Shown: piece by piece, positions 7,682-58,935 of the stretch | Layout of the letters: each line of letters begins with the position of its first letter | Position numbering within the stretch: position 1 is the first letter of the stretch | Assembly (NCBI GenBank): GCA_965249835.1 | Contig: CBDFMY010000003.1 | Coordinates: forward strand, 1,249,979 to 1,313,978 | DNA: 64,000 nucleotides | DNA from: Candidatus Poriferihabitaceae bacterium | Lineage (GTDB): Bacteria; Pseudomonadota; Gammaproteobacteria; Arenicellales; Poriferihabitantaceae | Direction of reading: 5' to 3' | Notes under the pieces: generated by a model | What the model saw: the letters and a program-made list of their open reading frames with translations, nothing else | The model's database searches: none | Told to the model about the DNA's origin: nothing | Translations under genes and position numbers: made by a program

Positions 7682-8557
7682 ATGAACCAGATGCTTGAAC
7701 ATAACAAAATCGTTAAAGGCGATACATTTCATTTGCTACCAAAAATCGAAGAGGAAAGCATTGATTTAATTGTTTGTGACGGACCATACAGTGTCACGAC
7801 GAACGAATGGGACAGAGTCGGTTCGATTCAAGAATACAACTTGAATTTATTAAAAATATTTTCCACCAAACTAAAAGATGGCGGTGCTTTATATCTATTT
7901 GGAAAAAATGATTGTATTGATTTTATCGATTATCGATCTTATTTGAATCTTAAATCCAAAATTGTCTGGTATCAGCCCAGTCGGCTTTCCCATGGGCGGG
8001 TCAGTTTCACCAATAATTACGATATAATTTGTTACTTCGTCAAAGGCGATAAACCAAAAACTTTCAATTTGGATTCAATAAGAGTCCCGCAGTTGGTTGA
8101 ACTGCAACATCGCTTAAGATGCGAAAATGTGCCTTCCGTTCGAACCGGAAAATATGGCAGAACAAAATTTAATGACAAAGGAAAAAACCCGGGTGATGTG
8201 TGGGGAGATATAAAGCAATTGACTTATAAATCAAAAGAATTAGTCAGCAGGGAAGCACTCAACACAATTCAAAAGCCAGAAAAACTTTTTGAAAGAATTA
8301 TATTGGCCAGTTCAAATAAAGATGATCTTGTTTTAGATCCTTTTTGCGGAGTTGGAACAACAGCGGTTATGTGTAAAAAGCACAAAAGAAATTTTATTTG
8401 TTTCGAGAAAAATCACCAACTCGTAGAATGGGGGAATGAAAGAATAATGCGGTTGGGAAAAATTGAAATGGCACAACAAAGTGATTTATCCCAACCCATA
8501 ATCGAGCCCCCAATGTCACCAGTGGCAACGCGGCCTTCCCCGCCACACACCGCCTAA
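7682..8557 (+). CDS. Beta-class DNA methyltransferase (N6-adenine or N4-cytosine), orphan
   Basis: Motif IV variant IVCDGPYS near the N-terminus and motif I DPFCGVGTTAV near the C-terminus (beta-class order); TIQKPEKL. AT-rich. AAGGA lies 5 nt upstream of the ATG. Confidence 0.85.
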   Translation: MNQMLEHNKIVKGDTFHLLPKIEEESIDLIVCDGPYSVTTNEWDRVGSIQEYNLNLLKIFSTKLKDGGALYLFGKNDCIDFIDYRSYLNLKSKIVWYQPSRLSHGRVSFTNNYDIICYFVKGDKPKTFNLDSIRVPQLVELQHRLRCENVPSVRTGKYGRTKFNDKGKNPGDVWGDIKQLTYKSKELVSREALNTIQKPEKLFERIILASSNKDDLVLDPFCGVGTTAVMCKKHKRNFICFEKNHQLVEWGNERIMRLGKIEMAQQSDLSQPIIEPPMSPVATRPSPPHTA

Positions 8558-10780: not shown

Positions 10781-13011
10781 TGGCCGGGCGTGGTTGAGGG
10801 AATGGTGGGCGGCAGCACCACCGGCAAGCCACGGGCGAACTGCGCCCAAGTGAGATGGCGCAGGACATTGCCATCGGCTTTCACGCCAAGGTCCATCGCC
10901 GCACCGAAATATCGCAGTTGCGGGTTGCGTCGCAAAGTATCAAGCGCGGGAATTACCTGATAACTCTCCAGACCCAGCGCATACAACCGGTCGAGGTCGG
11001 TGTGGTAATACGCTCCCGGCTCACGCCCGGGGGGCTGCACCGACCAAGATTCTGCTGACTCGGGTTCCGGCTGCGGCTGCGGCAAAACCGCGGCATCCAG
11101 TATCCAGTTCATGTCGCCGAAAATGATGCCGTCAAGGTCGGCATCAATCGCCGGATCGGGTTTGTCGTCATACACTTCGGAGGTGGCGTATAGCGCGAGA
11201 TCGTGGGCTTGATAAAACCGCAGTTGCGGCACAAGTTGCCGCGCCTGTTCGGCGTTGGCAGCGAGAAACAAAAAGTCAATGTCGTGCCGGCGGCGCGGCG
11301 TGAATTCCAGTTTGATGCCCAATCGTGCATCCAGAATGCGTTTGCGTTTGATGCTTTGGTCGAGGCCAAGCAGTTGTTGGATGATCCGGGGATGGTCGGA
11401 ACTGTCATCGGAAAAAGATGTGTCGTCCACCAGCGTCGCGCCGAGCAATTCCCACTGTTCGGCAAAAGCATCGGCGACCCGCTGACCCCAATGCGAATCG
11501 CTTCGGAAAATCCCCGCCTGGCGGTGGCCATCGGCAAACGCCCGCATCGCCACCTGTCGGGCTTCCTGCTCCGGCGACAGGCTGATGCCATACCAATTCG
11601 GTGCGCTTTGCGCTTCAGGGATGCTGCCGACCAACAGCACCGGCAGTGGCGGCGGCGCACCGGAGAGCAACGCATCCACCGCCCGCTGCCCCAGCGGTCC
11701 CACGATGAAATCCACGCCATCATTCACCGCGGCTCCATAATACAACGACACCAACTGCGGGTCTGTGCCGATGTCATACCAACTCACCGTGGGCAGGTCG
11801 CTCGCCGAGTCATCGTTGCGCGCCGCCATAAAGCCATCGTAAAACGCGTGTGCGGCTTCGCCGAATTTTGAGGTCAGCGGCAACAGCAGGGCGATGTGTC
11901 GGGGATGAGTAGCGACCGAATCGTCCGCCAGCAGATGCTGATTGAACAATCGTGGCGAAGCCGGATGCCCGGGATAGAGCGTGCGCCATTGCCGGATTGC
12001 CGCTATTCGCTCGGCAGGCGATTCGGATTGCAACACTTCACTCAGCGCGACCCAGCCGGATAAGATATCGCCAGCGGCATCGTCGTCGGGATTTTCCTGC
12101 AGCAGCAACCGACCGAGCGAATCCAGCGACTCGATCAAATCGAGAATGTGCCGCTGGTTGGCAACCCGCCCGGCCGGCTCCGGCAAGTTATCCAGTTGCA
12201 ACCGAGTCGCCACCGCCGCATCGTTGCGTCCCAGTGTTTGCTCGGAATCGGCGCGCAACCGCAACAGCCGGGCGCGGGTTTGCGCGCTCAGGCTGGGGGT
12301 TTGTTCGAGCGTGCGCAGCCATTCCAGAGCGTGCTCGTGCTGTCCCAGGGTCTGTACCAGATGCGCCTGATGGAGCATCAGACCATGCCGCTGAAAGTCC
12401 GCCATGGGCAGGTATTGCAAACGCACGATGAGGCTTTGCGCGGCGGCCGGTTGGTTCTGCCGGATAAATCCGTCAATGGCGCGCAACAGTAGCGGCACCG
12501 CTTGTTGTGGCGCAAGCGATTCCGCACGATTCGCCAGCATGCGGGGATCATCCTCGGCCACGGTAATCCCCGGTTCATCATTCAGCGCCTGGGCGATGGC
12601 TTGCTCCTCGTCCGGTTCCTCGGTTGGTTCCTTGGCCGGCTGGCTGGGCTGCGTGACCACTGGTTCATCATTCAGCGTCTGAGCGATGGCTTGCTCCTCG
12701 TCCGGTTCCTCGGTTGGTTTCTTGGCTGGCTGGCTGGGCTGCGTGACCACTGGTTCATCATTCAGCGCCTGAGCGATGGCTTGCTCCTCGTCCGGTTCCT
12801 CAGATGGTTCCTTGGCCGGCTGGCTGGGCTGCGTGACCACCGGCCGCTCGGTTATTTGCGGTGTAGTGGGCGGTGTAGTCGGCGGCGCAGTCGGCCAAGG
12901 CCCCGGCAGGGGAATGCAGGCGGCGACCAGCACCGACAGCAGTATGGCGGTGGCGGTGCGGCAAAGGGAAAGCGAAAGGGTTGCCGGCCGACGATCACCT
13001 CCGGCCGTCAT
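10777..13011 (-). CDS. lpoA: Penicillin-binding protein activator LpoA (LppC/YraM family) with repeat-expanded N-terminal linker
   Basis: Lipobox LSVLVAAC after the M at 13011; C-terminal periplasmic-binding-protein-like region (LLLPLTSKFGEAAHAFYDGF, DFIVGPLG). Divergent from rsmI as in E. coli. Confidence 0.8.
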   Translation of the reverse strand: MTAGGDRRPATLSLSLCRTATAILLSVLVAACIPLPGPWPTAPPTTPPTTPQITERPVVTQPSQPAKEPSEEPDEEQAIAQALNDEPVVTQPSQPAKKPTEEPDEEQAIAQTLNDEPVVTQPSQPAKEPTEEPDEEQAIAQALNDEPGITVAEDDPRMLANRAESLAPQQAVPLLLRAIDGFIRQNQPAAAQSLIVRLQYLPMADFQRHGLMLHQAHLVQTLGQHEHALEWLRTLEQTPSLSAQTRARLLRLRADSEQTLGRNDAAVATRLQLDNLPEPAGRVANQRHILDLIESLDSLGRLLLQENPDDDAAGDILSGWVALSEVLQSESPAERIAAIRQWRTLYPGHPASPRLFNQHLLADDSVATHPRHIALLLPLTSKFGEAAHAFYDGFMAARNDDSASDLPTVSWYDIGTDPQLVSLYYGAAVNDGVDFIVGPLGQRAVDALLSGAPPPLPVLLVGSIPEAQSAPNWYGISLSPEQEARQVAMRAFADGHRQAGIFRSDSHWGQRVADAFAEQWELLGATLVDDTSFSDDSSDHPRIIQQLLGLDQSIKRKRILDARLGIKLEFTPRRRHDIDFLFLAANAEQARQLVPQLRFYQAHDLALYATSEVYDDKPDPAIDADLDGIIFGDMNWILDAAVLPQPQPEPESAESWSVQPPGREPGAYYHTDLDRLYALGLESYQVIPALDTLRRNPQLRYFGAAMDLGVKADGNVLRHLTWAQFARGLPVVLPPTIPSTTPGQ
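12564..12842 (-). repeat. Three tandem 93-bp in-frame repeats inside lpoA
   Basis: The unit ttcatcattcagcg... recurs with a 93-bp period (12564-12656, 12657-12749, 12750-12842). It encodes EPVVTQPSQPAKEPxEEPDEEQAIAQxLND three times. Confidence 0.9.
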
Positions 13012-13054: not shown

Positions 13055-13942
13055 ATGGCGACAAGTATACGAGACCTTCGCATGAACGGCAAAACCGCAA
13101 CCACCGAAAGTGGAACACTGTTCATCGTCGCAACCCCCATCGGAAACCTCGGGGACATCACCCTGCGGGCCATCGATGTGTTGACGCGGGTTGATTTAAT
13201 TCTCGCGGAAGACACCCGACGCGCGGCGATTTTGTTGCGCCATCTGAACATCCGCACGCCGGTGAAGTCGTTTCACCGGGACAACGAAGCCGCGCGCCTG
13301 ACCTCGGTGCTACGGCAACTCGGCGATGGCGCGCAAATCGCGCTTATCAGCGATGCTGGCACGCCGCTGATTAGCGACCCGGGTTATCCGCTGGTGCAAC
13401 AAGCCAGAGAACGCGGCATCACCGTAACCCCGGTGCCGGGCCCAAGCGCCCTGATTGCGGCGTTGTCGGCATCGGGATGTCGCGCCGACCGCTTTTGCTT
13501 TGAAGGATTTCTGCTGGCAAAAGCCGAAGGACGCCGCCGACGTTTGCAGGAATTGAAAGGCGAGACCCGCACGTTGGTATTGTATGAATCCAGCCACCGC
13601 ATCAGCGCAACCCTGGCCGCCATCTCGACAACGCTCGGCGGCCATAGAATGCTCACCGTGGCGCGCGAAATCAGCAAAAAATTCGAGACGTTTTACTGCG
13701 GCACGGTGACGGAAGTAATGCAAACCATCGCCGCCGATGCCCGCCATCGCAAGGGCGAATTCGTACTCGTTCTAAGCGGCGCAACCGAACCCGAAGCCGA
13801 CCACGAACGTGCGGTGGAAATCATGGAATTGTTGAGCACGGAAATGCCCCTGAAACGCGCCAGCAAAATCGCCGCACGCCTTCTTCCTGAAAACAGCAAC
13901 GAATTGTATGCGCTTGGGCTTGAGATTAAGCGAAAGGCTTAA
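13055..13942 (+). CDS. rsmI: 16S rRNA (cytidine1402-2'-O)-methyltransferase RsmI
   Basis: GTLFIVATPIGNLGDITLRA and SDAGTPLISDPG motifs. Start is ambiguous (13055 or 13082). Confidence 0.85.
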   Translation: MATSIRDLRMNGKTATTESGTLFIVATPIGNLGDITLRAIDVLTRVDLILAEDTRRAAILLRHLNIRTPVKSFHRDNEAARLTSVLRQLGDGAQIALISDAGTPLISDPGYPLVQQARERGITVTPVPGPSALIAALSASGCRADRFCFEGFLLAKAEGRRRRLQELKGETRTLVLYESSHRISATLAAISTTLGGHRMLTVAREISKKFETFYCGTVTEVMQTIAADARHRKGEFVLVLSGATEPEADHERAVEIMELLSTEMPLKRASKIAARLLPENSNELYALGLEIKRKA

Positions 13943-14210
13943 TTGCGCTTGCTTATTTTGCGCGTATCATCCCTGATACGCGCCCTTCGGGCTCGCTTCG
14001 CTCGCGCCAATCAATTCATGGCGCTCCCGGCGATTTTTTCCGCCATGGTTTATTACGCCGTATAGTGTTGCGTTGCTGCTTATCCGCTTAATGTAGGCGC
14101 GCTCCACCGCTCCTTGCGCGCCTTGCCTGACGAAAAATAATCTGCGCTCAATGTCGCTTGCCTATCAACGAAAATGCGGCGCGCAATGGCGGCGAAAAGG
14201 CAAGCACAAT
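13943..14210. repeat. Modular intergenic repeat element (modules L-A-B plus inverted L), MITE/REP-like
   Basis: Starts at the rsmI stop with ATTGCGCTTGCTTATTTT and ends with its inverted copy AAAAGGCAAGCACAAT. Module A (13960-14039) contains the hairpin GCGCGTATCA-TCCC-TGATACGCGC. Modules recur at 45080-45800, 48494-48604, 54231-54950, 56135-56335 and 58493-58935. Confidence 0.85.
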
Positions 14211-21859: not shown

Positions 21860-21877
21860 CGCTGCCCCATTTTTATT

Positions 21878-21920
21878 ATGGTCGCAATGCTGTGTTGTGG
21901 TGCGTTGCGTTGCCGTTACT
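21878..21920. repeat. Short degenerate fragment of repeat module B
   Basis: atggtcgcaatgctgtgttgtggtgcgttgcgttgccgttact aligns with atggtcgttttgctgtgtagtgttgcgttgcgttgtcgcttact at 54250-54293. Confidence 0.4.
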
Positions 21921-22044
21921 ACAAACCATCATTGCCCATCATTGCCATGGGCGAACATCGTGCGATAAACTGCGCACGATTTTTTGCCCCGGTTTTGACG
22001 GATAATCGCGGGTGACTTTTACCTTTTTCTTCGGAGCATAGTTA

Positions 22045-24931: not shown

Positions 24932-25630
24932 ATGGATAACGCCGAAGCGATTACTGCCCGGGCGGTGCAGTTCGCCAAAGATAATTGCAAGGAAATTACC
25001 CGACGGGCGATAGCAGGGTTTTCGCAGGAAAGTGATCCTGTTTCTATTTTTATGGCGGGTTCGCCCGGGGCAGGTAAAACCGAGGCTTCAAAAAAACTAT
25101 TAAAAAACCATGGTGATATATTGCGCATTGACGCTGACGAGTTACGCGAACATTTCAGGGAATGTGGTTACGATGGAAAAAATTCACATCTTTTTCAGAA
25201 AGCCGCGACCAGATTAGTGCATGAAATACATGACGCTGCCTTAAAAAGTAAAATCAGTTTTTTACTCGATGGCACTTTCGCCGGCGAACCCATGGCGAGA
25301 CAAAATATTCAAAGGTCATTGAAACGAGACCGAGATGTATTTGTTTTGTTTGTGTATCAATCCCCATTGACTGCATGGGTTTTTGTGCAAAAACGCGAAA
25401 AGGTGGAAGGACGACGCATACAACCACAAGATTTCGCGGAAAAGTTTTGCGCATCAAGAAAAGTGGTGAACAAGATGAAGGCGGAGTTTGGAAATAAAAT
25501 TGAATTGTCGCTGGTGCAGAAAAACATTGACGGCACCAACAAAATTTTTAAAGAGAGCATTCAACGAATCGATGATCATATTCCAGAAAAATACAGCGAA
25601 GAGCAAATACTGAAAGAAATTTTGGGTTAG
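24932..25630 (+). CDS. Zeta-toxin-family P-loop kinase
   Basis: Walker A FMAGSPGAGKTE followed by ILRIDADELREHF, then LLDGTF: the layout of Zeta_toxin/PezT-like kinases. AT-rich. Confidence 0.65.
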   Translation: MDNAEAITARAVQFAKDNCKEITRRAIAGFSQESDPVSIFMAGSPGAGKTEASKKLLKNHGDILRIDADELREHFRECGYDGKNSHLFQKAATRLVHEIHDAALKSKISFLLDGTFAGEPMARQNIQRSLKRDRDVFVLFVYQSPLTAWVFVQKREKVEGRRIQPQDFAEKFCASRKVVNKMKAEFGNKIELSLVQKNIDGTNKIFKESIQRIDDHIPEKYSEEQILKEILG

Positions 25631-25644
25631 CGAGACTGATTATT

Positions 25645-26607
25645 ATGAACACAAAAATTGGGAAAATCCGCAAGGTTGCTTTGCGCGAACTCTGGAAAAG
25701 GGAGGATACAAACTTTACCCAGTGGCTCGAAGAAAACATCGATTACCTGACCGATGTCATTGGTTTCAATATCACCGTTGAATCGCGGGAAAAGAAGGTC
25801 GGGCCGTTCAGTGTTGATTTATATGGCGAGGACGATAATGGCGATAAAGTCATTATCGAAAATCAACTGGAAAAAACAGATCACACTCATCTCGGGCAAA
25901 TACTTACTTACCTGACAAACCTTGAGGCAAAGACCGCAATCTGGATTTCGAGCGATCCCGTTGAAGAGCATAAGAAAGCAATTGAGTGGTTAAATGAAAC
26001 GACCCCGGACGATATTTCTTTTTACTTGATACAACTGGAGGTTATAAAAATCGATGGCGAATCGGTGGCAGCACCTTTGTTCACTGTTATCAAGAAACCG
26101 AATATTGAAACTAAACAAATTGGGGATGAAAAAAAGAAATCCTCACATCGGCATACTTTGCTTTACAAATTTTGGGAGCAATTTATTGGAAAAATAAATG
26201 AAAAAAGTCCTATTTATCAAAATATCAGTCCAGGGAAGAACCATTGGCTACCAGTATCGCTTGGCATGAGTGGGGTAAGTATGAATCTGGTTGTGTCCAA
26301 CAGACAAGCACGGGCGGAAATTTACATTGACACAGGAGACAAGGAGAAAAACGAAATCATATTTGATTTTTTCTTTGACAAAAAAGAGCAGATTGAATCT
26401 GATTTTGCGGACAAATTAAACTGGAAAAAATTGGAAAATAATCAGGCTTCCAAGGTTGAACATCAATTAAATAATGTCAGCTTTTCCAACGAAGAAGACT
26501 GGAACAAAATGACTGATTTTTTGATTGATTGTGCCATCATAATGCATCAGGCATTTCAGAAACATATACCGGAAATAAAGGAAAAACTAAAAACCGGCGT
26601 GGCGTAA
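25645..26607 (+). CDS. DUF4268-type protein with N-terminal PD-(D/E)xK-like nuclease core
   Basis: VDLYGEDDNGDKVIIENQLEKTDHTHLGQILTYL is characteristic of the nuclease-like N-domain seen with DUF4268. The start lies 14 nt downstream of the zeta-like gene stop. Confidence 0.55.
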   Translation: MNTKIGKIRKVALRELWKREDTNFTQWLEENIDYLTDVIGFNITVESREKKVGPFSVDLYGEDDNGDKVIIENQLEKTDHTHLGQILTYLTNLEAKTAIWISSDPVEEHKKAIEWLNETTPDDISFYLIQLEVIKIDGESVAAPLFTVIKKPNIETKQIGDEKKKSSHRHTLLYKFWEQFIGKINEKSPIYQNISPGKNHWLPVSLGMSGVSMNLVVSNRQARAEIYIDTGDKEKNEIIFDFFFDKKEQIESDFADKLNWKKLENNQASKVEHQLNNVSFSNEEDWNKMTDFLIDCAIIMHQAFQKHIPEIKEKLKTGVA

Positions 26608-31920: not shown

Positions 31921-32094
31921 TGATAGTTACCGCATCGGCCTGAACTGGAAATTCGGTTCGGCGATCGCTCTGGATGTGGTCGACCAGATCAATAACCGGC
32001 CGCGCAAATGCCTTGGCATGAAAACACCGAATCAGGCACTATTCGGCATAAATCCCCCTGTTGCACTTCGAGGTTGAATCCAAGGACTTATACA
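31921..32094 (+). mobile_element. IS30-family right-end remnant (transposase C-terminal about 35 codons plus terminus)
   Basis: Reads ...DVVDQINNRPRKCLGMKTPNQALFGINPPVALRG*, an IS30 C-terminal signature. The terminal ggttgaatccaaggacttataca is shared with 45801-45884. Confidence 0.65.
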
Positions 32095-32185
32095 CGCACT
32101 GGAATCGGCGGCGTGCTCGCCGTATAATCGCCATCATGACCCGCCATCCCCTTCCGGCAACCGCACGGTTGCAACGCCACGGGCA

Positions 32186-33508: not shown

Positions 33509-35811
33509 ACGACTCAACGATAAAACTCGGCGCGTATTTGTGCAAAGGCTGCGGCTTGGGCGAGCGTCTTGATACGGATAAATTGGCCACGGTCGCCGAA
33601 CAAAGCGGCGCGACCACGGTCAAGACGCATGATTATTTGTGCAGTGCCGACGGCGTCGCCACTATCCGCGATGACATCGAAAACCAACAAGTCACCCATG
33701 TCGTCATCGGTGCTTGCTCGCGCCGCGCCAAAACCGAAGCGTTTGGTTTTGACGAAGCATCACACGAATCACATGGCGCGGCGGTGGCGCGGGCGAATTT
33801 GCGCGAAGGCGTGATTTGGACGCAACCGGATACGCCGGATGCGCGCGAGACCACCCAGGAGATGGCGGATGATTATGTGCGCATGGCATGCACCGAAGCG
33901 AAGTTCATGCAGTTGCCGAAAGCCGATGCCGAGAGCGCTGCCAACAAGCGCATTCTGGTGGTCGGCGGCGGCGTCAGCGGCATGACCGCGGCATGGCAAT
34001 CGGCGCGCGCCGGCTATGCGGTTTTGCTGGTGGAAAAAAGCCCCGCGCTCGGCGGCTGGGCGCGTTCGTTGCATCGTTGTCTGCCGCGCACCGAGCCACA
34101 TGCGCAACCGGTGCACAATGACATCGCGCAACTCATCAAGGCGGTGGAAGATCACGCTAGTATCACGGTGTTTTTGAATGCCACCGTAGCCAAAACCAGC
34201 GGTGCACCGGGGCGTTTTTCGGTGGACATTGCGAGTGGCCGCACCACCGTTACCGAGAACATCGGCGGCATCGTGCAAGCCAGTGGTTTCAGTCGGTACG
34301 ATGCCAACCGCCTGCCGGAATTTTCCTACGGCAAAACTCCGGATGTGATCGACCAAACCGAGTTGGAGGCACTGGCGGTCAAAGCCGGCGACAATGGCGG
34401 CAATGGTGGCAATGGCGGAGTGATAACGCGCCCCTCCAACGGCAAACCGGTTAACAGCGTGGTGTTCGTGCAGTGCGCCGGCCAACGCTCGCAAAAGCCC
34501 GGACATCTGCCATATTGCTCCGGTTATTGTTGCAACGTAAGCATCAAGCAGGCGATGTATTTCAAGGAGCAAAACCCCGACATTGATACCAATGTGATTT
34601 ATTCCGACCTGCGCACGCCCGGCAACGGCGAGGATTTTTATCGTGCGGCGCAACAGCAAGGCGTGGTGTTCACCAACGGCGAGGTGGCCTCGGTTGTGCC
34701 TGATGCCGAACAGTTGGCGGTGCATTTTCGCGATCATATCTTGCACCAAGACGCGGTCGCGCACGCCGATCTGGTGGTGCTGGCAACCGGGCAAGTGCCG
34801 AATTCGGGGGTGGATATCGAGGCCGACAATGACGCCGGGGATGCCGAGGGCAAGAGTGCCGAGGGTAGCGCCGAAAATAAAAAACCCGGCGAGGTCAGGG
34901 TTTCGGTGGAGTCCATTCTCAATCTCGATTACCGTCAGGGTCCCGACCTGCCGCATTTGAAACACGGCTTCAGCGATTCGCATTTCATCTGTTTCCCATA
35001 TGAGACGCGCCGCACCGGCATTTACGCGTGCGGTCCGGTGCGCCGCCCGATGGACATTCAGCAATCCATTGAAGATGCCACCGGCGCAGCGATGAAGGCG
35101 ATTCAATCGGTCGAAGCCGCCAACTTCGGGCGTGCCGCGCATCCGCGTGTCGGCGATTTGTCCTATCCGAGTTTCCGCAAGGACGGCTGCACCCAGTGTA
35201 AGCGTTGCACCGTGGAATGTCCGTTCGGCGCCATCGACGAAGATGAAAACGGCTATCCGCAGTTCAACGAATCGCGCTGCCGGCGTTGCGGCACTTGCAT
35301 GGGCGCGTGTCCGGTGCGCGTGATTTCGTTTGAAAATTATTCGGTGGACACCGTCGGCCAGCAAATCAAAGCCATTGAAATGCCCGATGAATTCGACGAG
35401 AAGCCGCGCATCCTGATTCTCGCTTGTGAAAACGATGCCTATCCGGCGCTGGATATGGCGGCGCACAACCGCATCCAATACAACGCCTTCGTGCGCGTGA
35501 TTCCGATTCGCTGCCTGGGTTCGGTGAATTTGATCTGGGTGACCGATGCGATTAACTCCGGCTTTGACGGCATCATGATGATGGGCTGCAAAAAGGGTGA
35601 TGACTATCAATGTCACTTCGTGCGCGGTTCCGAGTTGGCGCACGAGCGCATGAGCAAGATTGACGACACCTTAACGCAATTGCAACTGGAAACCGAGCGC
35701 GTGCAAACGTTTGAAGTGGAAATCACTGACATTGAACGCGTGCCGAAACTGATTAACGACTACGCCGAAAAAATAGACGCGCTCGGCATGAATCCGTTCA
35801 AAGGGTTTTGA
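33505..35811 (+). CDS. qmoB: QmoB (HdrA-like flavoprotein with 2x[4Fe-4S] and C-terminal MvhD-like domain)
   Basis: ILVVGGGVSGMTAAWQSA; ferredoxin motifs CTQCKRCTVECP and CRRCGTCMGACP; C-terminal ILACENDAYP...IPIRCLGSVN (MvhD/FlpD-like). Confidence 0.85.
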   Translation: MNDSTIKLGAYLCKGCGLGERLDTDKLATVAEQSGATTVKTHDYLCSADGVATIRDDIENQQVTHVVIGACSRRAKTEAFGFDEASHESHGAAVARANLREGVIWTQPDTPDARETTQEMADDYVRMACTEAKFMQLPKADAESAANKRILVVGGGVSGMTAAWQSARAGYAVLLVEKSPALGGWARSLHRCLPRTEPHAQPVHNDIAQLIKAVEDHASITVFLNATVAKTSGAPGRFSVDIASGRTTVTENIGGIVQASGFSRYDANRLPEFSYGKTPDVIDQTELEALAVKAGDNGGNGGNGGVITRPSNGKPVNSVVFVQCAGQRSQKPGHLPYCSGYCCNVSIKQAMYFKEQNPDIDTNVIYSDLRTPGNGEDFYRAAQQQGVVFTNGEVASVVPDAEQLAVHFRDHILHQDAVAHADLVVLATGQVPNSGVDIEADNDAGDAEGKSAEGSAENKKPGEVRVSVESILNLDYRQGPDLPHLKHGFSDSHFICFPYETRRTGIYACGPVRRPMDIQQSIEDATGAAMKAIQSVEAANFGRAAHPRVGDLSYPSFRKDGCTQCKRCTVECPFGAIDEDENGYPQFNESRCRRCGTCMGACPVRVISFENYSVDTVGQQIKAIEMPDEFDEKPRILILACENDAYPALDMAAHNRIQYNAFVRVIPIRCLGSVNLIWVTDAINSGFDGIMMMGCKKGDDYQCHFVRGSELAHERMSKIDDTLTQLQLETERVQTFEVEITDIERVPKLINDYAEKIDALGMNPFKGF
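35481..35811 (+). repeat. 331-bp direct repeat, copy 1 (native 3' end of qmoB)
   Basis: Matches 37536-37866 at 329 of 331 positions (differences at 35553 and 35559, both synonymous). Confidence 0.95.
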
Positions 35812-35905: not shown

Positions 35906-36808
35906 ATGTATCAGCGACCGGCATCCACTCTTTCCACATTTGCCGAAGCAAATGTCAGGCAAGCCGATATTTTTCAGGCTGACGGGACGGACGTTTGCAG
36001 TGAGAAATTTGTGGGTTGCAGTATTGACCAGTATTATACCAAACCTGAAATAGTTTCGATCTGTTTGCGCGAATTGGGCAGGTTGTCCGAGTTTGATTGC
36101 GTGATTGAACCTAGTGCCGGCGATGGTGCATTTTTTTCCAAGATTAAGCATAGCAACTTAATAGGATTGGATATTACTCCGCATCATCCAGCGATTAAAA
36201 AAGCAAACTGGCTGACTTACAAAATAGACAGCGCATACAAAAAAGTGGTGGTGGTGGGTAACCCGCCATTTGGCAGATTTAATAATTTGTCCGCGGCATT
36301 TATCCAACATGCATTAAAATTCCCCGCAGTTTCGTGCATCGGTTTTATTTTGCCCGATGTGTATAACAAACATACCCGACAAGCGATACTGCCAAGCCAT
36401 TGGCGCATTAAAACGAACCATAAATTGCCGCGCAATGCGTTTTTGTATGAAGGAGAAACCCAACATGTGCCATGTTCGTTTTTTGTGTTTTGTCGGTCAC
36501 AGGGCAAGGATTTGCGTGTACCGACCAAATTGCCGAACATTGCGGATTTTAGCTTTTCCAATTGCAAAGATTACGATGTGTTTATTTTTGGTGCTGCACC
36601 AAAAAATATATTACGGCAGGGGGAAGTTAAGAAAAATAATCGCGGGCATTTTCTGAAATCACATATTGATGTTAATCGGTTAATTGCCAACTTAAACGCG
36701 GTGGTTTGGCAAGGCAACTCATGTGCAAGCGGCGGTGTGTATTGGCTGACCAAAAATGAATTGGCGATGCAGTATTATCACAGACACACGATTGGGCCAA
36801 AACCATGA
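35906..36808 (+). CDS. Gamma-class N6-adenine DNA methyltransferase (compact, 300 aa)
   Basis: Order QYYTKPEIV (motif X), VIEPSAGDGAFF (motif I), VVVGNPPFG (motif IV NPPF). AT-rich. Confidence 0.8.
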   Translation: MYQRPASTLSTFAEANVRQADIFQADGTDVCSEKFVGCSIDQYYTKPEIVSICLRELGRLSEFDCVIEPSAGDGAFFSKIKHSNLIGLDITPHHPAIKKANWLTYKIDSAYKKVVVVGNPPFGRFNNLSAAFIQHALKFPAVSCIGFILPDVYNKHTRQAILPSHWRIKTNHKLPRNAFLYEGETQHVPCSFFVFCRSQGKDLRVPTKLPNIADFSFSNCKDYDVFIFGAAPKNILRQGEVKKNNRGHFLKSHIDVNRLIANLNAVVWQGNSCASGGVYWLTKNELAMQYYHRHTIGPKP

Positions 36809-37395
36809 AATTAACAAGACAAGACAAAAGAGACATGAGGTCATTGGCAACGACTGTTTATGAAAGCCAAGCAAAGTCCAGTGTTTTGGTGATGCGAGTC
36901 AAAGATAAATTAATAGCGGCCGAACTTACCGGAGTAGTAACCGCGGTGGAATTTTATCGAATCACTGCATTGATGAGCACTCAAATGCGCGCGCCGTTAT
37001 GGGAAAAATATTTTATTGAAAAACATGGATTTAATCGGGTTCAACCCGCTGAAAACCAAGGTGATATGGAAAAAAACGGAAATTACTACGAATATAAGGC
37101 ATCTGGATTTAACGCCAAAAATGAATTGAGACTCCTCCAAATTCGGCATTGGCAAAATTGCGATTACATATTCCAATTTATATCCGGCGAAGGGGCAGAC
37201 ACATTTTGCCTTACCAAAAAACAAATGAAAGTCGAAATGAAAATCAATAAAGCTCACCCGGCACATGGCACAAAGACAGTCAATTTAAATAATAAAATGG
37301 TGGAATACATGATGACTGTGAAGAGAGAAAGAATGAATGATGTTTGGATGAAAAAGTATTTTGTTGCAGACCCGTTACAGATAGGCGTTGTCTGA
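36805..37395 (+). CDS. Hypothetical protein, candidate PD-(D/E)xK restriction endonuclease partner
   Basis: The start overlaps the MTase stop (ATGA). GDMEKNGNYYEYKAS gives D-x9-E-x-K spacing. 196 aa, AT-rich. No recognisable family otherwise. Confidence 0.45.
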   Translation: MKLTRQDKRDMRSLATTVYESQAKSSVLVMRVKDKLIAAELTGVVTAVEFYRITALMSTQMRAPLWEKYFIEKHGFNRVQPAENQGDMEKNGNYYEYKASGFNAKNELRLLQIRHWQNCDYIFQFISGEGADTFCLTKKQMKVEMKINKAHPAHGTKTVNLNNKMVEYMMTVKRERMNDVWMKKYFVADPLQIGVV

Positions 37396-37512: not shown

Positions 37513-37866
37513 ATGAATCCAATCGAAAAATATCGCAACGCCTTCGTGCGCGTGATTCCGATTCGCTGCCTGGGTTCGGTGAATTTGATCTGGGTGACCG
37601 ATGCGATCAACTCTGGCTTTGACGGCATCATGATGATGGGCTGCAAAAAGGGTGATGACTATCAATGTCACTTCGTGCGCGGTTCCGAGTTGGCGCACGA
37701 GCGCATGAGCAAGATTGACGACACCTTAACGCAATTGCAACTGGAAACCGAGCGCGTGCAAACGTTTGAAGTGGAAATCACTGACATTGAACGCGTGCCG
37801 AAACTGATTAACGACTACGCCGAAAAAATAGACGCGCTCGGCATGAATCCGTTCAAAGGGTTTTGA
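37513..37866 (+). pseudogene. Chimeric fragment: hdrC-like start (MNPIEKYRN) fused to a duplicate of the last 110 codons of qmoB
   Basis: From 37536 on it is identical (2 synonymous changes) to the qmoB 3' end. 37513-37539 (ATGAATCCAATCGAAAAATATCGCAAC) resembles the hdrC start ATGAACTCC...GAAAAATACCGCAAC at 39220. Confidence 0.8.
37536..37866 (+). repeat. 331-bp direct repeat, copy 2
   Basis: See copy 1; offset is exactly 2055 bp. Confidence 0.95.
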
Positions 37867-38018: not shown

Positions 38019-39218
38019 ATGAATCTGCAAATTCCCAACCGCGCATTATTCACCGGCGACAACCTGCCGATTTTGCGCGGCATAAACTGCGACAGCGTTG
38101 ATTTGATTTACCTCGACCCACCGTTCAACTCCAACAAAGAATACTCGGCAGTGGAAGGAAGCGAAGCGGCCGGCGCGTCTTTCAAGGATGCGTGGACGCT
38201 TTCGGATGAAGATGAATCGTGGCACGCCGCGTTGAAATCGCATCATCCGAAGTTATACGCGATCATTCATGTGGCCGGTGCGGTTGGTGACTCCGGCGAC
38301 AAATCGTATTTGATTTACATGGCGGTTCGCATTTTGGAATTGCGCCGCATTATGAAAAACACCAGTAGCATTTATTTGCATATCGACCCGACCATGAGTC
38401 ACAGTCTGAAGTTGGTGATGGATGCGATTTTTGGCAATGGCGGATTTGTTAATGAGATTATCTGGTATTACAAAAACGCATCGCGTGGCAAAAAACGTTT
38501 TGCCAAAAGCCACGATGTGATTTTATGGTATGCAAAGGGCGCGCCGCAGTTTAACCGTGATGATGTGCTGACACCGTTTGCAAGCGGCATGACCAAATGG
38601 CGTTATACGCATGGCGGTCAGCGCGGCAATCCCATTCCAAAAGGAAAAACGCCGGATGATGTGTTTGAGATTCCCGCGTTGAATGCCATGGCAAAGGAGC
38701 GCATGGGTTACCCGACGCAAAAACCGCTGGCGTTGCTGAATCGCATCATCAAGGCGAGCAGCAACGAGGGCGACACCGTGCTCGATCCGTTTTGCGGTTG
38801 CGCCACCACTTGCGTTGCGGCGGAAGTGTTACACCGCAAATGGATTGGTATTGATATCAGCCCGAAGGCGTTGGAGTTGGTGAAGACGCGGCTCGGCCGG
38901 GAAGTGCTCGGTGAGGGCAAAGTGTTCAAGGGCGAAGTCGTTCATCGCACCGACATCCCGCATCGTATCGATATTCCGCGCATCACACTGTCGGACACCG
39001 AAATTCGCAAAAGGTTATATGGCAACCAGGCCGGGCTATGCAATGGTTGCGGATTTCATTTTCCCATTCAGAACTTTGAGCGCGATCACATTGTCCCGCC
39101 CTGCCAAGGCGGTGCCGATATAATGGAAAACTTTCAATTGCTGTGCGGTAACTGCAATCGCGTCAAAGGCAATCGCACCATGGAATATTTGAAAGCGCGC
39201 CTTCTCGAGAAACAATAA
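38019..39218 (+). CDS. Beta-class DNA methyltransferase fused to a C-terminal HNH endonuclease domain
   Basis: IYLDPPFNSN (motif IV) then DPFCGCATTCVAAE (motif I) and PTQKP. The C-terminal 70 aa read CNGCG...FERDHIVPPCQGG...NFQLLCGNCNRVKGN (HNH with a Cys4 zinc pattern). Confidence 0.85.
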   Translation: MNLQIPNRALFTGDNLPILRGINCDSVDLIYLDPPFNSNKEYSAVEGSEAAGASFKDAWTLSDEDESWHAALKSHHPKLYAIIHVAGAVGDSGDKSYLIYMAVRILELRRIMKNTSSIYLHIDPTMSHSLKLVMDAIFGNGGFVNEIIWYYKNASRGKKRFAKSHDVILWYAKGAPQFNRDDVLTPFASGMTKWRYTHGGQRGNPIPKGKTPDDVFEIPALNAMAKERMGYPTQKPLALLNRIIKASSNEGDTVLDPFCGCATTCVAAEVLHRKWIGIDISPKALELVKTRLGREVLGEGKVFKGEVVHRTDIPHRIDIPRITLSDTEIRKRLYGNQAGLCNGCGFHFPIQNFERDHIVPPCQGGADIMENFQLLCGNCNRVKGNRTMEYLKARLLEKQ

Positions 39219-45079: not shown

Positions 45080-45800
45080 GCCATTGCGCTTGCCTTTTAT
45101 TCTCGTTTACTTTTGGCGTCTCAAAGAGAGTCACACTTTGCGATTCACCATTGCCTATCATTTGTCATCCTCGCCGGCAGGCGGGGATCCAGACGCGGCG
45201 AAGCCGCGCAAATGGCGGCGGCTTCGCCGCCGGTTTTTCGAGCCAGAATAACGAGACGAAAAGCGTGTTGTCCGGCGTAGCCGGACTATTAGCGATGTCA
45301 CGCGTAGCGTGACTCATTTGCGGCGAAGCCGAACTCCTTATAATCCAGACAAACATTGCGCGCCGCATTTTCGTTGTCAGGCAAGGCGCGCGAGGAGCGA
45401 GGGAGGGAGCATACATTAAGTATGTGAGCGACCGAGAGACGATGCGCAACACCGCATGGCGACGAAAAGGCAAGCGCAATGACGGCAAGGCGATGGTGCT
45501 TGTTGCTTACTAATGTATGAGCGCGTCCCGGCGGCTACGCCACTCTGGATCCCCGCCTGCTGGCGAGGATGACGAATACTGATTCTTTCGTTGCCACGCT
45601 CACAGCCAGAGCGTGCAGGGACGCACGCTGGCGCGTGGAAACAGGATGTTTCCTCCTGCGATGGGGGGGGCGCGGGGGTATCTCCCCCGCAAAGCGCGAG
45701 CACGCGCAAGCTGAACCTTTGCATATCAGCCACAGGTTACTCGGCGGCGTAAGCCGCCGCCATCGCCCGTCGCACACCACTGTCATTTGCGGCGGAGCCA
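45080..45800. repeat. Composite/nested block of the intergenic repeat family
   Basis: Module L (+) at 45083-45105 and L (-) at 45458-45480. The inverted pair gtcatcctcgccggcaggcggggatccag (45164-45192) and ctggatccccgcctgctggcgaggatgac (45545-45573). Module B is inverted at about 45355-45457. Segments are shared with 58740-58860. Confidence 0.8.
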
Positions 45801-45884
45801 CGCAAATGCCTTGGCATGAAAACACCAAATCAGGCATTATTCGGCATAAGTTGCACTTCGGGGTTGAATCCAAGGACTTATACA
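45801..45884 (+). mobile_element. IS30-family right-end remnant, second copy
   Basis: cgcaaatgccttggcatgaaaacaccaaatcaggcattattcggcataa...ggttgaatccaaggacttataca parallels 32003-32094. Confidence 0.6.
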
Positions 45885-45889
45885 TTGAC

Positions 45890-45918
45890 TTGAATTGTCT
45901 CGCTAAACAGGTTAAATT
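45890..45918 (+). promoter_or_regulatory. Candidate sigma70 promoter of rpmH operon
   Basis: TTGAAT-N17-TAAATT, 32 nt upstream of the rpmH ATG. It abuts the IS30 remnant end. Confidence 0.3.
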
Positions 45919-46795: not shown

Positions 46796-48493
46796 ATGGA
46801 AATCCAGCGGATGATCTTGTTCGGTGCCCTCGGCCTGGTGCTGATTATGCTCTGGCAGTCGTGGGTGGAATTTCAGCAGCAAACCACCGCCGCCAACGAC
46901 CCGGCCGCGGGTTCCGGTTTGAACCAGCGCACCGAAGTTGCCGGCACCGCTTCCGGTTCCCGAGTTGGTGATGTTCCCGAAGCCCCGGCATTGTCGGTGC
47001 CATCTGCGAATACCGACCCAACCATCGAAGCGGTCGCCACGCAGGTTTCGGCTACCGATGGCCGGTTGATCAACGTCGCTACCGATTTGATGCGCGTCCA
47101 GATTGATCCACGTGGTGGCGATCTGGTACGGGTGGAATTGCTGCGTCATCCGGTGAGCGTTGATCGGCCGGATGAACCGTTCGTATTAATGCACCGCGAT
47201 GACGGCGGCTTGTTTATCGCCCAGAGCGGACTCATCGGCGCCGACCGTAAGTATCCAGACCACGGCGTGACCTATTCGGTTTCCGCTTTGGATTACGACC
47301 TCGGCGACCACGAGCAAATGGAAGTCGTCCTTGACTGGCGTGCGCCGGACGGAGTCGCCTATCAAAAAGTATTCCACTTCCGGCGCAACGCCTACCGCAT
47401 CGAAGTGGACTTCCGCGTAGACAACCAAAGCCCCGAGCCGTGGACTGGTTTTGTGTATGGCCAGTTGAAGCAGACCGAAATCGTTCAGCAAGGTTCCATG
47501 GGTTTTCTTGGCCGTCTGCCAAGTTATAACGGCGCGGCGGTCTACACCGCCGAAGACAACTACGAAAAAATTACCTACGACGACATGCGCGAGGAACCGC
47601 TTAATCTTTCCACCGAATCCGGCTGGGTTTCCATGATGCAACATTACTTCGTGGCGGCGTGGTTGCCCTCCGACTCCGAGCGCTATCAATTTTTCTCCGG
47701 TGTTGCCGATACCGCATCCAATCCCCAATATCGCATCGGTTATAAAACCACGCAACCGGTGCGAATCGGCGGCGGCGAGGAAGGCGTAATTCGCACGGTG
47801 TTGTTCGTTGGACCCAAAGAGCAAAAACGCCTGAGCCAACAGCAAGCCGAAGGGTTGCTCCTGGCGGTGGACTACGGCTGGCTGACGCCCATCGCCGACC
47901 CGTTGTTCTGGCTGCTGAGCAAAATTCATGACGTGGTCGGCAACTGGGGCTGGGCGATCATTTTGCTGACCCTGCTGGTCAAGGCGGTTTTCTATCCGCT
48001 GTCCGCCACCAGTTACAAGTCCATGGCGAAAATGAAAAAACTGCAGCCGCGTTTGAAAACCCTCAAGGAGCGTTACGGCGACGACAAGCAGAAGTTCCAG
48101 CAAGAAATGATGAAGTTGTATAAAGCCGAAAAGGTAAATCCGGCCGGCGGCTGCTTGCCGATTCTGGTGCAGATTCCGGTGTTCATCGCGTTGTATTGGG
48201 TGCTGCTCGAGAGCGTGGAATTGCGTCAGGCGGACTTCATGTTCTGGCTAAAAGATTTGTCCATACCCGACCCGTATTTTGTCCTGCCGTTGATCATGGG
48301 CGCCTCAATGCTGGCGCAATACTTTCTCAACCCGGCACCGGTAGACCCGCTGCAAAAGAAAATCATGATGGCCATGCCCATCGTTTTCACGGTGTTCTTC
48401 CTGTGGTTTCCCGCCGGGCTGGTGTTGTATTGGGTGGTGAACAATCTGCTTTCCATTACGCAGCAATATTATATTTCCAGAAAATACACTTGA
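46796..48493 (+). CDS. yidC: Membrane protein insertase YidC
   Basis: MEIQRMILFGALGLVLIMLWQSW start; C-terminal KMKKLQPRLKTLKERYGDDKQKFQQEMMKLYKAEKVNPAGGCLP. An alternative ATG is at 46787. Confidence 0.9.
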   Translation: MEIQRMILFGALGLVLIMLWQSWVEFQQQTTAANDPAAGSGLNQRTEVAGTASGSRVGDVPEAPALSVPSANTDPTIEAVATQVSATDGRLINVATDLMRVQIDPRGGDLVRVELLRHPVSVDRPDEPFVLMHRDDGGLFIAQSGLIGADRKYPDHGVTYSVSALDYDLGDHEQMEVVLDWRAPDGVAYQKVFHFRRNAYRIEVDFRVDNQSPEPWTGFVYGQLKQTEIVQQGSMGFLGRLPSYNGAAVYTAEDNYEKITYDDMREEPLNLSTESGWVSMMQHYFVAAWLPSDSERYQFFSGVADTASNPQYRIGYKTTQPVRIGGGEEGVIRTVLFVGPKEQKRLSQQQAEGLLLAVDYGWLTPIADPLFWLLSKIHDVVGNWGWAIILLTLLVKAVFYPLSATSYKSMAKMKKLQPRLKTLKERYGDDKQKFQQEMMKLYKAEKVNPAGGCLPILVQIPVFIALYWVLLESVELRQADFMFWLKDLSIPDPYFVLPLIMGASMLAQYFLNPAPVDPLQKKIMMAMPIVFTVFFLWFPAGLVLYWVVNNLLSITQQYYISRKYT

Positions 48494-48604
48494 GCTTGTC
48501 TTTTCGTCGCCATGCTTCGTCGCGTTGTTGCTTATCCGCTTAATGTAGGCGCGCGTCACCGCTCCTCGCGCGCCTTGCCTAACGAAACATATGCGGCGCG
48601 CAAT
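48494..48604. repeat. Intergenic repeat (L-like plus module B), starts at the yidC stop
   Basis: gcttgtcttttcgtcgccatgc...cttatccgcttaatgtaggcgcgcgtcaccgctcctcgcgcgccttgcctaacgaaa parallels 14040-14147. Confidence 0.8.
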
Positions 48605-48673
48605 GTTTGTCCGGATTGTCCGGTCAACCCGGATTAATGACGAGTGGAGAGAAATCACCTGAGTGCAATGGGA

Positions 48674-54230: not shown

Positions 54231-54950
54231 ATTGCGCTTGCCTATTTTCCGCCATGGTCGTTTTGCTGTGTAGTGTTGCGTTGCGTTGTCGCTTACTTAC
54301 TTAATGTAAGCGCGCTCCACCGCTCCTTGCGCGCCTTGCCTGACAACGAAAATACTGCGCACAATTTTGCGCGTATCATCCCTGATACGCGCCCTTCGGG
54401 CTCGCTTCGCTCGCGCCAATCAATTCATGGTGCTCCCGGCGATTTTTTCTCAATGTGCTTTGGCTTCTCAACGCGCTTTTGTCTTTTCAATTTATTATTG
54501 CCCTTTCATTCGTCATTCTCGCCGGCAGGCAAGTTGTTCTCGCCAAAGGCGAGAACCCAGAACTAAAAAACGATGAGAGTAACTAATACCGTCATAATCC
54601 AAGCCACATCTCCAGACCGTGATTCCTTTTGAGATGCCAAAAGCAACCGAGAAAAAGTTTTAATGTCGTTACGCCTTAGTGCGCTCAAAGCGGCGGCTAA
54701 CGCCGCCACTCTGGATTGCGCGTATCATCCCTGATACGCGCCCTTCGGGCTCGCTTCGCTCGCGCCAATCAATTCATGGCGCTCCCGGCGATTTTTTCTC
54801 AATGTGCTTTGGCTTCTCAACGCGCTTTTGTCTTTTCAATTTACTATTACCTATAATTCGTCATTGTCCGGCTTGTTCCGGGCAATCCAGTTAAAAAACC
54901 CAGCGGCGTTAGCCGCCCGTCACGCAAAGCGCGTTCACGCGCAACCGCAA
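54231..54950. repeat. Large block of the intergenic repeat family (L-B-A-extension, unique core, A-extension-C)
   Basis: Starts at the mnmG stop with ATTGCGCTTGCC. Module B lies at about 54247-54365. The module A plus extension unit occurs twice (54367-54520 and 54716-54870, 349-bp offset). Confidence 0.85.
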
Positions 54951-56134: not shown

Positions 56135-56335
56135 GCTCGTTCGCTTGCTTATTTTCCGCCATGCTTTGTTGCGCTACGTTGCGTTGTCGCTTACTTACTT
56201 AATGTAAGCGCGCTCCACCGCTCCTTGCGCGCCTTGCCTGACGAAAAATAATCTGCGCTCGTCGTTCTGGCTCAAAACGCCGGCGGCTAACGCCGCCGCC
56301 CGCATCCTCGCCTGCGGCGAGAATAACGAACAACG
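56135..56335. repeat. Intergenic repeat (L-like plus module B plus GC-rich tail modules)
   Basis: tcgcttgcttattttccgccatgc...cttacttacttaatgtaagcgcgctccaccgctccttgcgcgccttgcctgacgaaaaataatctgcgctc is near-identical to 14090-14147. Confidence 0.8.
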
Positions 56336-58492: not shown

Positions 58493-58935
58493 TCCGCCGG
58501 CGGTTGCGCGTGCCTTTTCGTCGCCATGGTTTATTACGGTTTGTTATGCTGTGTAGTATAGTGTTGCGCATCATCGCTCGATCGCTCACATACTTAATGT
58601 ATTGCTCACTCCCTCGCTCCTCACGCGCCTTGCCTGACAACGAAAAAATCGCCGGGAGCGCCATGAATTGATTGGCGCGAGCGAAGCGAGCCCGAAGGGC
58701 GCGTATCAGGGATGATACGCGCAAAATAGGCGCGCAATTTTGCGCGTGCTCGCGCTTTGCGCGGGGTAAGTTTCCACGCGCCAGTTGATTGGGAGAATAG
58801 AGTAAGTGGGCGTGACAACGAAAGAATCAGTATTCGTCATCCTCGCCGGCAGGCAGAATCCAGTTATTAAACCCAGCGGCGTTAGCCGCTATCATTTCGG
58901 CGGCGAAGCCGCCGGTTTTTCGAACCAGAATTGTA
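58493..58935. repeat. Intergenic repeat block (L-like, B, inverted A, inverted E, C, D modules)
   Basis: Module A is in reverse orientation at 58642-58722 (gaaaaaatcgccgggagcgccatgaattgattggcgcgagcgaagcgagcccgaagggcgcgtatcagggatgatacgcgc). cgaaagaatcagtattcgtcatcctcgccggcaggc (58821-58856) is the reverse complement of 45556-45591. Confidence 0.85.

Follow-up and report, generated by a model that had tools for sequence, protein, structure and literature searches.

Repeat arrays at gene ends of a sponge-associated gammaproteobacterial lineage: probable mosaics of nested small repeats, one with a putative Correia-like core

Why do genes of this genome end in hairpin-bearing repeats, and what are these repeats? 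The window, the whole 64 kb stretch of DNA analysed here, had been described in a preliminary description as carrying one modular family (modules L, A and B) that inserts at or near stop codons. Repeats were present at all seven loci named (chance expectation about 0), the sequences quoted for them were found at the coordinates given, and self-comparison of the window returned the same repeat families. The 3′ box of B, CGCGCCTTGCCTRAC, occurs six times in 64 kb, compared with 0.00 expected from 100 shuffles. The L arm also occurs six times in the window, five of them at repeat loci, for 0.13 expected. The four copies of A in the window are 97-100% identical, and the B copies are 70-88% identical to one another. 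Genes flanking the arrays are rsmI, a folK-folP fusion, yidC, mnmE, mnmG, hemW, a parA-like gene, gor and rsmH. The sequences given earlier for the junctions with stop codons hold for all four genes concerned, rsmI, mnmG, yidC and folK-folP, whose identities were confirmed as well. All features of the arrays are collected in Table 1.

Table 1. Features of the repeat arrays in the window
Feature	Position	Strand	Remarks
B copy 1 (Correia-like MITE), A nested in left arm	13942..14152	+	L arm starts on last A of rsmI stop TAA
A element, 76 nt plus TTTT	13960..14039	+	Inserted at TATTTT^CCGCC of B arm; z = -3.5
A 5′ hairpin GCGCGTATCA-TCCC-TGATACGCGC; second hairpin GCGCCA/TGGCGC	within 13960..14039
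Tandem extra B right arm (14157-14187), then inverted L arm (14189-14210)	14157..14210	.	Families D6, D15
Degenerate 5′ half of B	21866..21925	+	Just past stop codon of xerC-like gene (21859); family D8
L-arm fragment (45083-45098), then module C ending in CGTC-type REP hairpin (45162-45192)	45083..45192	+	Array starts 3 nt past folK-folP stop codon
Terminator-like hairpin plus T-run within repeat module D17	45213..45240	+
Full B copy, opposite orientation, in array upstream of rpmH	45355..45480	-	z = -4.8 on + strand
CGTC-tagged REP hairpin, dRS3-like: TCGTCATCCTCGCCAGCAGGCGGGGATCCAG	45545..45575	-
B copy	48490..48604	+	yidC stop TGA (48491-48493) inside L arm; TTGAGC for TTGCGC
CGTC-type hairpin CGTCATTAATCCGG-GTTGA-CCGGACAATCCGGA, between B and mnmE	48610..48645	-	Read directly from sequence
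B copy	54231..54365	+	Begins directly after mnmG stop TAG
A (54369-54448), then module C with CGTC REP (54510-54560)	54369..54560	+
Second A-C unit; ends in CGTC REP (54858-54890)	54718..54890	+	95% identical to first unit; family D3
B copy between parA-like gene and hemW, antisense to both	56139..56261	+	Right arm truncated; L arm 15 nt from hemW start codon
CGTC-like REP hairpin beside parA-like stop codon	56296..56335	-
B copy, 11 nt past gor stop codon	58503..58738	+	A inverted at 58647-58726, equivalent right-arm T-run
Degenerate CGTC REP (58834-58863); terminator-like module (58897-58915 plus T-run)	58834..58925	+
Arm type of the element: ATTGCGCTTGCC

The module orders first reported, L-A-B (13943), L-B-A (54231) and L-B-A with A inverted (58493), are correct, but the single family of shuffling modules proposed from them did not stand. 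L and B form one element of arm and core, a palindromic unit of 115-140 bp in which L is the terminal arm. A complete copy reads ATTGCGCTTGCCTATTTTC, followed by CGCCATG..GCGTTGC..apical hairpin..CGCGCCTTGCCTGAC and then GAAAAT..GCGCAAT. Its arms are imperfect inverted repeats (ATTGCGC..ATTTTCG) at both ends, and the whole element folds as a single long hairpin. Module A is an insertion of its own, nested in other repeats. The left arm of B is broken by it at 13960 (TATTTT-A-CCGCC), and the mirror-image motif of the right arm, by A in inverted orientation, at 58647; in both cases excising 76 nt plus TTTT rejoins a normal B arm. At 54369 and 54718 it sits ahead of module C, and in the relative L230 (see below) it lies again at the left-arm T-run and once within a CGTC hairpin. 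It is always found 3′ of a T-run, has no inverted ends, and carries two hairpins, one of 10 bp at its very 5′ end and one of 6 bp. Insertion of A at T-runs in B arms or beside other repeats thus explains the three orders, which are nesting and not shuffling. As the arrays also hold CGTC-type REP hairpins, the modules are separate kinds of small repeat and not one modular family. Since the A copies are nearly identical, recent activity or co-amplification of A is the best explanation for them.

Three of the loci needed redrawing. The ‘fragment’ at 21878 is B-related, but consists of just a degenerate 5′ half. At 45080 a repeat is present; it is a 16-nt fragment of the L arm, and the full B copy lies in opposite orientation at 45355-45480. 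An inverted L does lie at the end of the 13943 array, but the first B copy, which ends at 14152, does not have it as partner arm; the inverted L comes after a tandemly duplicated R arm. A terminator role had also been suggested. Neither A nor B gives a terminator-like site or T-run, and neither shows the GC-rich hairpin plus T-run, oriented with the upstream gene, of an intrinsic terminator; strong terminator-like sites occur in the arrays only in module D17 (45213-45232 and 58897-58915).

To what extent are the repeats multiplied in the genome? In three public runs holding this DNA, word depth was about 1,100-1,300 for unique genes and 14,000-371,000 for repeat bins, that is, 10- to 300-fold that of unique DNA, and the contigs of these runs end at every repeat locus. 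The depth excess and the contig breaks together suggest that the repeat families have tens to hundreds of copies per genome. The arrays break short-read assemblies at each locus. Some public-run contigs join the left arm of B straight to its right-arm region, skipping 80 or 47 nt (window positions 48516-48597 and 45396-45444). Internally deleted, arms-only variants of B therefore exist elsewhere in the genome and may be compared to the short forms of Correia elements.

Mobility was apparent from two relatives found by a search with MnmE, L230 (91% identical MnmE) and L231 (81%). In L231, yidC ends in ..KYEAA-stop and mnmE starts 3 nt later; neither B nor A was found in 21 kb of this syntenic locus. 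The same spot carries a 180-nt insert in the window, where yidC ends in ..KYT-stop; in L230 it has 1,164 nt of repeats, among them B of another subtype. The C-terminus of mnmG is native in the window (..NQRAA-stop, compared with ..NRRAA-stop in L231) and B comes right after its TAG, while in L230 a CGTC hairpin replaces the last mnmG codons. From this comparison, insertions fall at gene ends or a few codons inside them, and the content of the arrays turns over fast. Arrays thus rewrite gene ends, as for the C-termini of yidC and mnmG, which matters for the annotation of such genomes. The L+B unit has these features of a MITE: it is small, non-coding and repeated (115-140 bp, six copies in 64 kb, high depth), it has terminal inverted repeats, and it is present or absent among related genomes (L231 empty, window and L230 filled). 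The MITE-like, mobile nature proposed for the element is borne out by its inverted arms, its high copy number and the empty site in a relative.

The association with stop codons was also recovered in this lineage. Four of the six B-arm copies lie within 3 nt of a stop codon, and the L arm of a fifth window copy within 11 nt. Because the repeats fill almost the entire spacers, plain abutment to stops carries little surprise; more telling is the consistent orientation, the L arm coming first in all six independent stop-adjacent cases (five in the window, one in L230). About 140 copies of the wider superfamily described below show no preferred orientation relative to flanking ORFs (co-directional 20 and 23, convergent 21, divergent 19), and no bias of B orientation relative to GC skew was found (54 versus 43). 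Many long ORFs flanking superfamily members end exactly in the TAG of a CTAG tip. An element starting with G and inserted into the TA of a stop codon would regenerate TAG, and such an insertion would be silent.

These junctions bear on the enzyme involved. Element tips common to many lineages read (C)TAGTGT..ACACTA(G), and the target N-TA-N deduced from them reads CTAG for 19 of the 26 copies. Six of the 26 have non-palindromic outer bases, so that these bases belong to the flank and not to the element. Sister-lineage junctions fit a TA duplication within CTAG. The arm tips of the window copies (ATTGCGC...GCGCAAT) show neither the TAGTGT tip nor a clear TA duplication, and the target-site argument is therefore carried over from the sister lineages. 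IS630 inserts in CTAG and duplicates TA. Given the N-TA-N sites, mostly CTAG, of superfamily members with recognisable tips, the most probable mover of B is a DDE transposase of IS630/Tc1-mariner type that duplicates TA and acts in trans. As had been noted, the window showed no transposase, Y1 enzymes included, in the 40 of its proteins that were checked. No ORF or transposase recurs as a neighbour of 141 superfamily loci, and no autonomous-looking long version of the element was found. We know of no transposase tied to Correia elements in the literature.

To place B among known elements, its core was searched in other DNA. A scan of genome contigs with a 17-mer gave mostly chance matches; about 21 among the matches listed were true and led to L087 and the hosts named here. 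L087 is a Candidatus Spongiihabitans MAG that carries A, B and C at 85-97% identity. In other taxa, the B core lies within palindromic elements of quite different arms: Salinisphaeraceae, Alcaligenaceae, Rhodocyclaceae, Aromatoleum, Gallionellaceae, Microbulbifer, Rhodanobacteraceae, two Clostridia MAGs and, with a copy in an rRNA spacer, Marinimicrobium and Shewanella benthica. The core GCGTTGC-N33-63-CGCGCCTTGCCTRAC was found in at least 120 metagenome contigs, the invariance of its boxes being partly circular as they were the search pattern. The distribution of the Correia-like core is unexpectedly wide, taking in Beta- and Gammaproteobacteria, two Clostridia MAGs and many metagenomes. Searches of viral contigs with B and with A, BLAST of plasmids with B and with the arrays, and BLAST of phages with Correia gave nothing.

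The Correia sequence used for comparison was confirmed in two N. gonorrhoeae records, each with at least 40 matching places (best 99.1% identical). Aligned to the antisense strand of 120 distinct copies, it scored a mean z of +4.7 over shuffles, compared with -1.1 for their sense strand. The best alignment covers 84 columns with about two thirds of positions identical, and the aligned core is TCAGG-CAAGGCG..hairpin..GGCGAGGCGGCGCAACGCAGCA-TGG. A profile HMM built from 79 copies, with the window and Neisseria left out, matched the window copies with E = 7e-8 to 1e-3, also recovered the L230 copies, and matched an element of Cupriavidus metallidurans with E = 9e-5. On 50 kb of gonococcal DNA, the two Correia loci were its top two matches (E = 0.05 and 0.9). 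A conserved core, as strictly required of a CREE, was thus found by both alignments and profile, the Neisseria match alone being weak (E = 0.05). We conclude from these comparisons that B belongs to a Correia-like superfamily, with a Neisseria link that rests on moderate scores.

The likeness to CREE/NEMIS goes beyond the core. The size class is 69-156 bp for CREE and 115-140 bp here; both form one long imperfect hairpin around a homologous core (..TCAGG(A)CAAGGCG..apical GTAC-type hairpin..GGCAACGC.G.A..GG..); both are intergenic, in many copies, and often touch gene ends; for neither is a cognate transposase known. The target is of TA type in sister lineages here, and CREE duplicate TA (PMC2229807), whereas the window copies show no such duplication. 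The ends also differ: the 26-bp Correia repeat TATAGTGGATTAA... is absent from the window, where the arms are ATTGCGCTTGCCTATTTTC, and its motif was found in the gonococcal loci only, so that the window copies lack the ends of a strict CREE. CREE of Neisseria carry promoters at their ends and an IHF site, and their transcripts are cleaved by RNase III; a consensus promoter scan of the elements studied here gave no enrichment. The host, finally, is a sponge-associated gammaproteobacterial lineage and not Neisseria. ERIC, RUP and other TA-flanked MITEs are likewise small, palindromic and intergenic, with TA termini and co-transcribed hairpins (PMC2229807), but they have no sequence similarity to the elements described here and are restricted to a genus or family, whereas a Correia-like core is found in more than one class and also in two Clostridia MAGs.

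The first MITEs to be described in bacteria were Correia elements. In the reviews consulted they are given for Neisseria alone, and NIME arrays have been stated to be absent outside the genus (PMC3184786, PMC1797815). A literature search for the core strings found no match; none of these repeat kinds, best known from Neisseria, is previously described in this lineage. A homologous core beyond Neisseria provides a far larger comparative set for asking which transposase moves Correia-type elements and what the role of the core is.

Several individual occurrences were recorded on the way. The chromid of C. metallidurans CH34 holds, in five places (L228:155-282), a palindromic element that has arms of its own, TACAGTGTAAGAGGCGCTATCAAAATGA..., and whose apical part, CCGCAGACAGTACAAGTAGTACGGCAAGG, is all but identical to the Correia core of Neisseria. 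The A/B/C repeats of L087:6600-7330 are 85-97% identical to window positions 13951-14154 and 54365-54658, while the MnmE of a Ca. Spongiihabitans genome is just 61% identical to that of the window; these values point to a horizontal spread among sponge symbionts, or else to a difference between the two Spongiihabitans genomes. In the spc operon, a Correia-like core lies between rpsN (S14) and rpsH (S8), 0 nt past the stop codon, in two Clostridia MAGs and one metagenome contig (L043:6150-6260; L088:1135-1250; L162), and stems P1 and P3 of these copies differ by compensatory changes. Spacers between 16S and 23S rRNA genes hold Correia-like elements as well (L074:3560-3680; L014:2380-2500; L068; L109; L188). 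These copies abut the 5′ end of tRNA-Ala or sit about 25 nt upstream of the 23S gene, all in the orientation whose transcript forms the stabler hairpin.

A further type of repeat in the arrays also has its counterpart in Neisseria. CGTC-tagged REPs carry a CGTC tag, a stem of 8-9 bp starting with AT, a loop of 4-5 nt and a CCA tail; the CGTC-1 elements of Neisseria are the dRS3 repeats, which cluster in mosaic regions and have no transposase associated (PMC3733652). Units of the arrays read TTCGTCAT-[9-bp stem, 4-nt loop]-ATCCAG and have all parts of the CGTC-1 definition, for example TCGTC-ATCCTCGCC-AGCA-GGCGGGGAT-CCAG at 45545-45575. They share with NIME/dRS3 the CGTC tag, the 9-bp stem starting with AT, the 4-nt loop and the CCA(G) tail. 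Between the copy in L087, CGTCATTCTCGCCGGCAGGCGGGAATCCAG, and a dRS3 context of the gonococcus, GTCATTCCCGCGCAGGCGGGAATCCGG, there are about two substitutions and a 2-nt indel. Like NIMEs, they are clustered in long mosaic arrays, interleaved with other repeats of 50-150 bp (PMC1797815, PMC3733652). In contrast, the strict dRS3 form ATTCCC-N8-GGGAAT (PMC1797815) was unmatched: the arms here are ATTCTC or ATCCTC and the spacer is 10 nt, not 8. The arrays are irregular, with no regular dRS3-RS-dRS3 series as in a NIME array, and neither a phage nor a recombinase that targets dRS3 was seen. With the arrays as queries, BLAST gave nothing on two gonococcal chromosomes.

We regard the repeat blocks as probable mosaics of at least four selfish or semi-selfish small repeats inserted beside and into one another. 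L+B would be a non-autonomous palindromic MITE with a Correia-homologous core, moved in trans by a transposase that lies elsewhere or is already lost. A would be a 76-nt element with a hairpin at each end that inserts at T-runs, the TTCGTCAT-hairpin-ATCCAG units would be CGTC-tagged REPs of the class that includes Neisseria dRS3, and the fourth kind would be a module with a genuine terminator-like hairpin. In a genome with tiny spacers (3 nt between yidC and mnmE in the empty-site relative), arrays would begin at stop codons, and these would supply the TA. Insertion at the extreme 3′ edge of a gene alone would spare both the protein and the start signals of the next gene, and later insertions would target repeats already present. 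Co-transcribed hairpins may affect mRNA processing. Two observations speak against this account: pure neutral insertion would not predict the uniform L-arm-first orientation of stop-adjacent copies, and the three Clostridia-type rpsN-rpsH copies keep their stems through compensatory changes and thereby hint at selection on structure in at least some copies.

Could the elements instead be kept for what they do in RNA? They would then be 3′-UTR or intercistronic modules whose hairpins are cut or bound, for example by RNase III, setting mRNA stability or uncoupling genes, and their orientation after stop codons would be selected. The six of six L-arm-first copies agree with this, and so does the difference between the strands: in 112 of 120 copies the fold of the antisense strand is stabler by about 9 kcal/mol, because conserved C·A mismatches of the sense strand become G·U pairs. 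The rRNA-spacer copies, all antisense to the B orientation, and the Clostridia rpsN-rpsH copies, which keep P1 and the apical hairpin through compensatory changes, point the same way, and RNase III is known to cleave Correia hairpins of Neisseria transcripts (PMC10969869, PMC2229807). Against it, orientation relative to flanking genes is unbiased over about 140 copies, the 81% relative lacks the elements throughout 21 kb of syntenic DNA, the 91% relative carries arrays of another composition at orthologous sites, and neither A nor B has a terminator-like T-run. We consider such a role unlikely. The dedicated 3′-UTR function offered in the preliminary description gives way to TA-specific insertion with purifying selection in very short spacers, which better explains the stop-codon link; the rpsN-rpsH copies leave room for co-option in some places.

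A broader version places selection on the core itself. The Correia-type core may be a conserved structured module (RNA or single-stranded DNA, antisense strand) kept by selection across bacterial classes and co-opted in places, such as rRNA spacers (tRNA-Ala/23S) and the rpsN-rpsH spacer of Clostridia, as a signal for processing or uncoupling; we put this forward only as a tentative possibility. If true, and together with the dRS3-like hairpins, the ‘Neisseria-specific’ Correia/NIME repeats would be one instance of an ancient, widespread intergenic system.

Another way of moving the repeats was weighed against the mosaic reading, in which B depends on a DDE enzyme. An HUH tyrosine transposase (IS200/IS605 or RAYT) would move the system, or at least A and the CGTC hairpins, in the form of folded single strands of DNA. 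A resembles IS200/IS605-derived elements and REPINs in having no inverted ends, hairpins near both ends and an insertion site always 3′ of a T-run; the features of an IS200/IS605 miniature element (no inverted ends, subterminal hairpins, short-motif insertion) are roughly present. It differs from them in lacking a GTAG tag, in having no TnpA or RAYT nearby and in its hairpin at the very end. Ends of IS200/IS605 elements seldom have a hairpin directly at the tip, as A does. The two strands of the B core fold very differently, as this mechanism would have it, but B does not fit the class at all: its clear inverted arms and TA-type targets suit DDE enzymes, and its orientation is unbiased with respect to GC skew. 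In other bacteria, hairpins of REP type are tied to RAYTs, yet CGTC REPs had no associated transposase in the published survey (PMC3733652). With no Y1 transposase found among 40 window proteins, we judge this mechanism improbable.

That the B core is an independent family of structured non-coding RNA genes, transposon-like in looks only, is very improbable and already disfavoured: the core is conserved, its flanking basal stem co-varies (12-15 double changes per pair in 29 sequences, MAFFT-based, which worked for the basal stem only) and the apical region folds better than shuffles (mean z = -1.6 sense, -2.1 antisense), but inverted transposon arms co-vary by construction, no Rfam family matched the window at gathering threshold or, with E<=1, the elements at seven loci, no promoter or terminator association was seen, both orientations relative to genes occur, and the copies are many per genome, with nested insertions and presence/absence between relatives.

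Other identities were dropped for B or the repeats. Integron attC sites, XerCD/dif, a sigma-54 promoter, similarity to SRP RNA and an S8 binding site were set aside on reading the sequences, Tn3-type inverted repeats on their wrong orientation, a hammerhead ribozyme as its CUGANGA match is not conserved, and a small conserved peptide for want of a conserved frame.

The window contains further repeats and genes outside these arrays. A 300-bp direct repeat (35481-35780 and 37536-37835, 99% identical) duplicates the 3′ end of an HdrA/FlpD-like gene and brackets two ORFs without Pfam match (35906-37395); a DNA methylase-HNH gene comes next (38019-39218). This region looks like an inserted cassette. 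Another repeat, of about 107 bp and 85-94% identity (31999-32105 and 45797-45895), closely precedes the gene at 32186 and rpmH, and may carry a promoter. Three tandem 90-nt units, 92% identical, are found at 12563-12843 on the minus strand in an LppC/LpoA-like gene, where they encode a 30-residue protein repeat. Finally, the window encodes defence- or addiction-type genes: a zeta-toxin-like kinase adjoining a DUF4268 protein (24932-26607), two N6/N4 DNA methylases (7682-8557 and the HNH-fused one at 38019-39218) and a ResIII helicase-like protein (3-2711).
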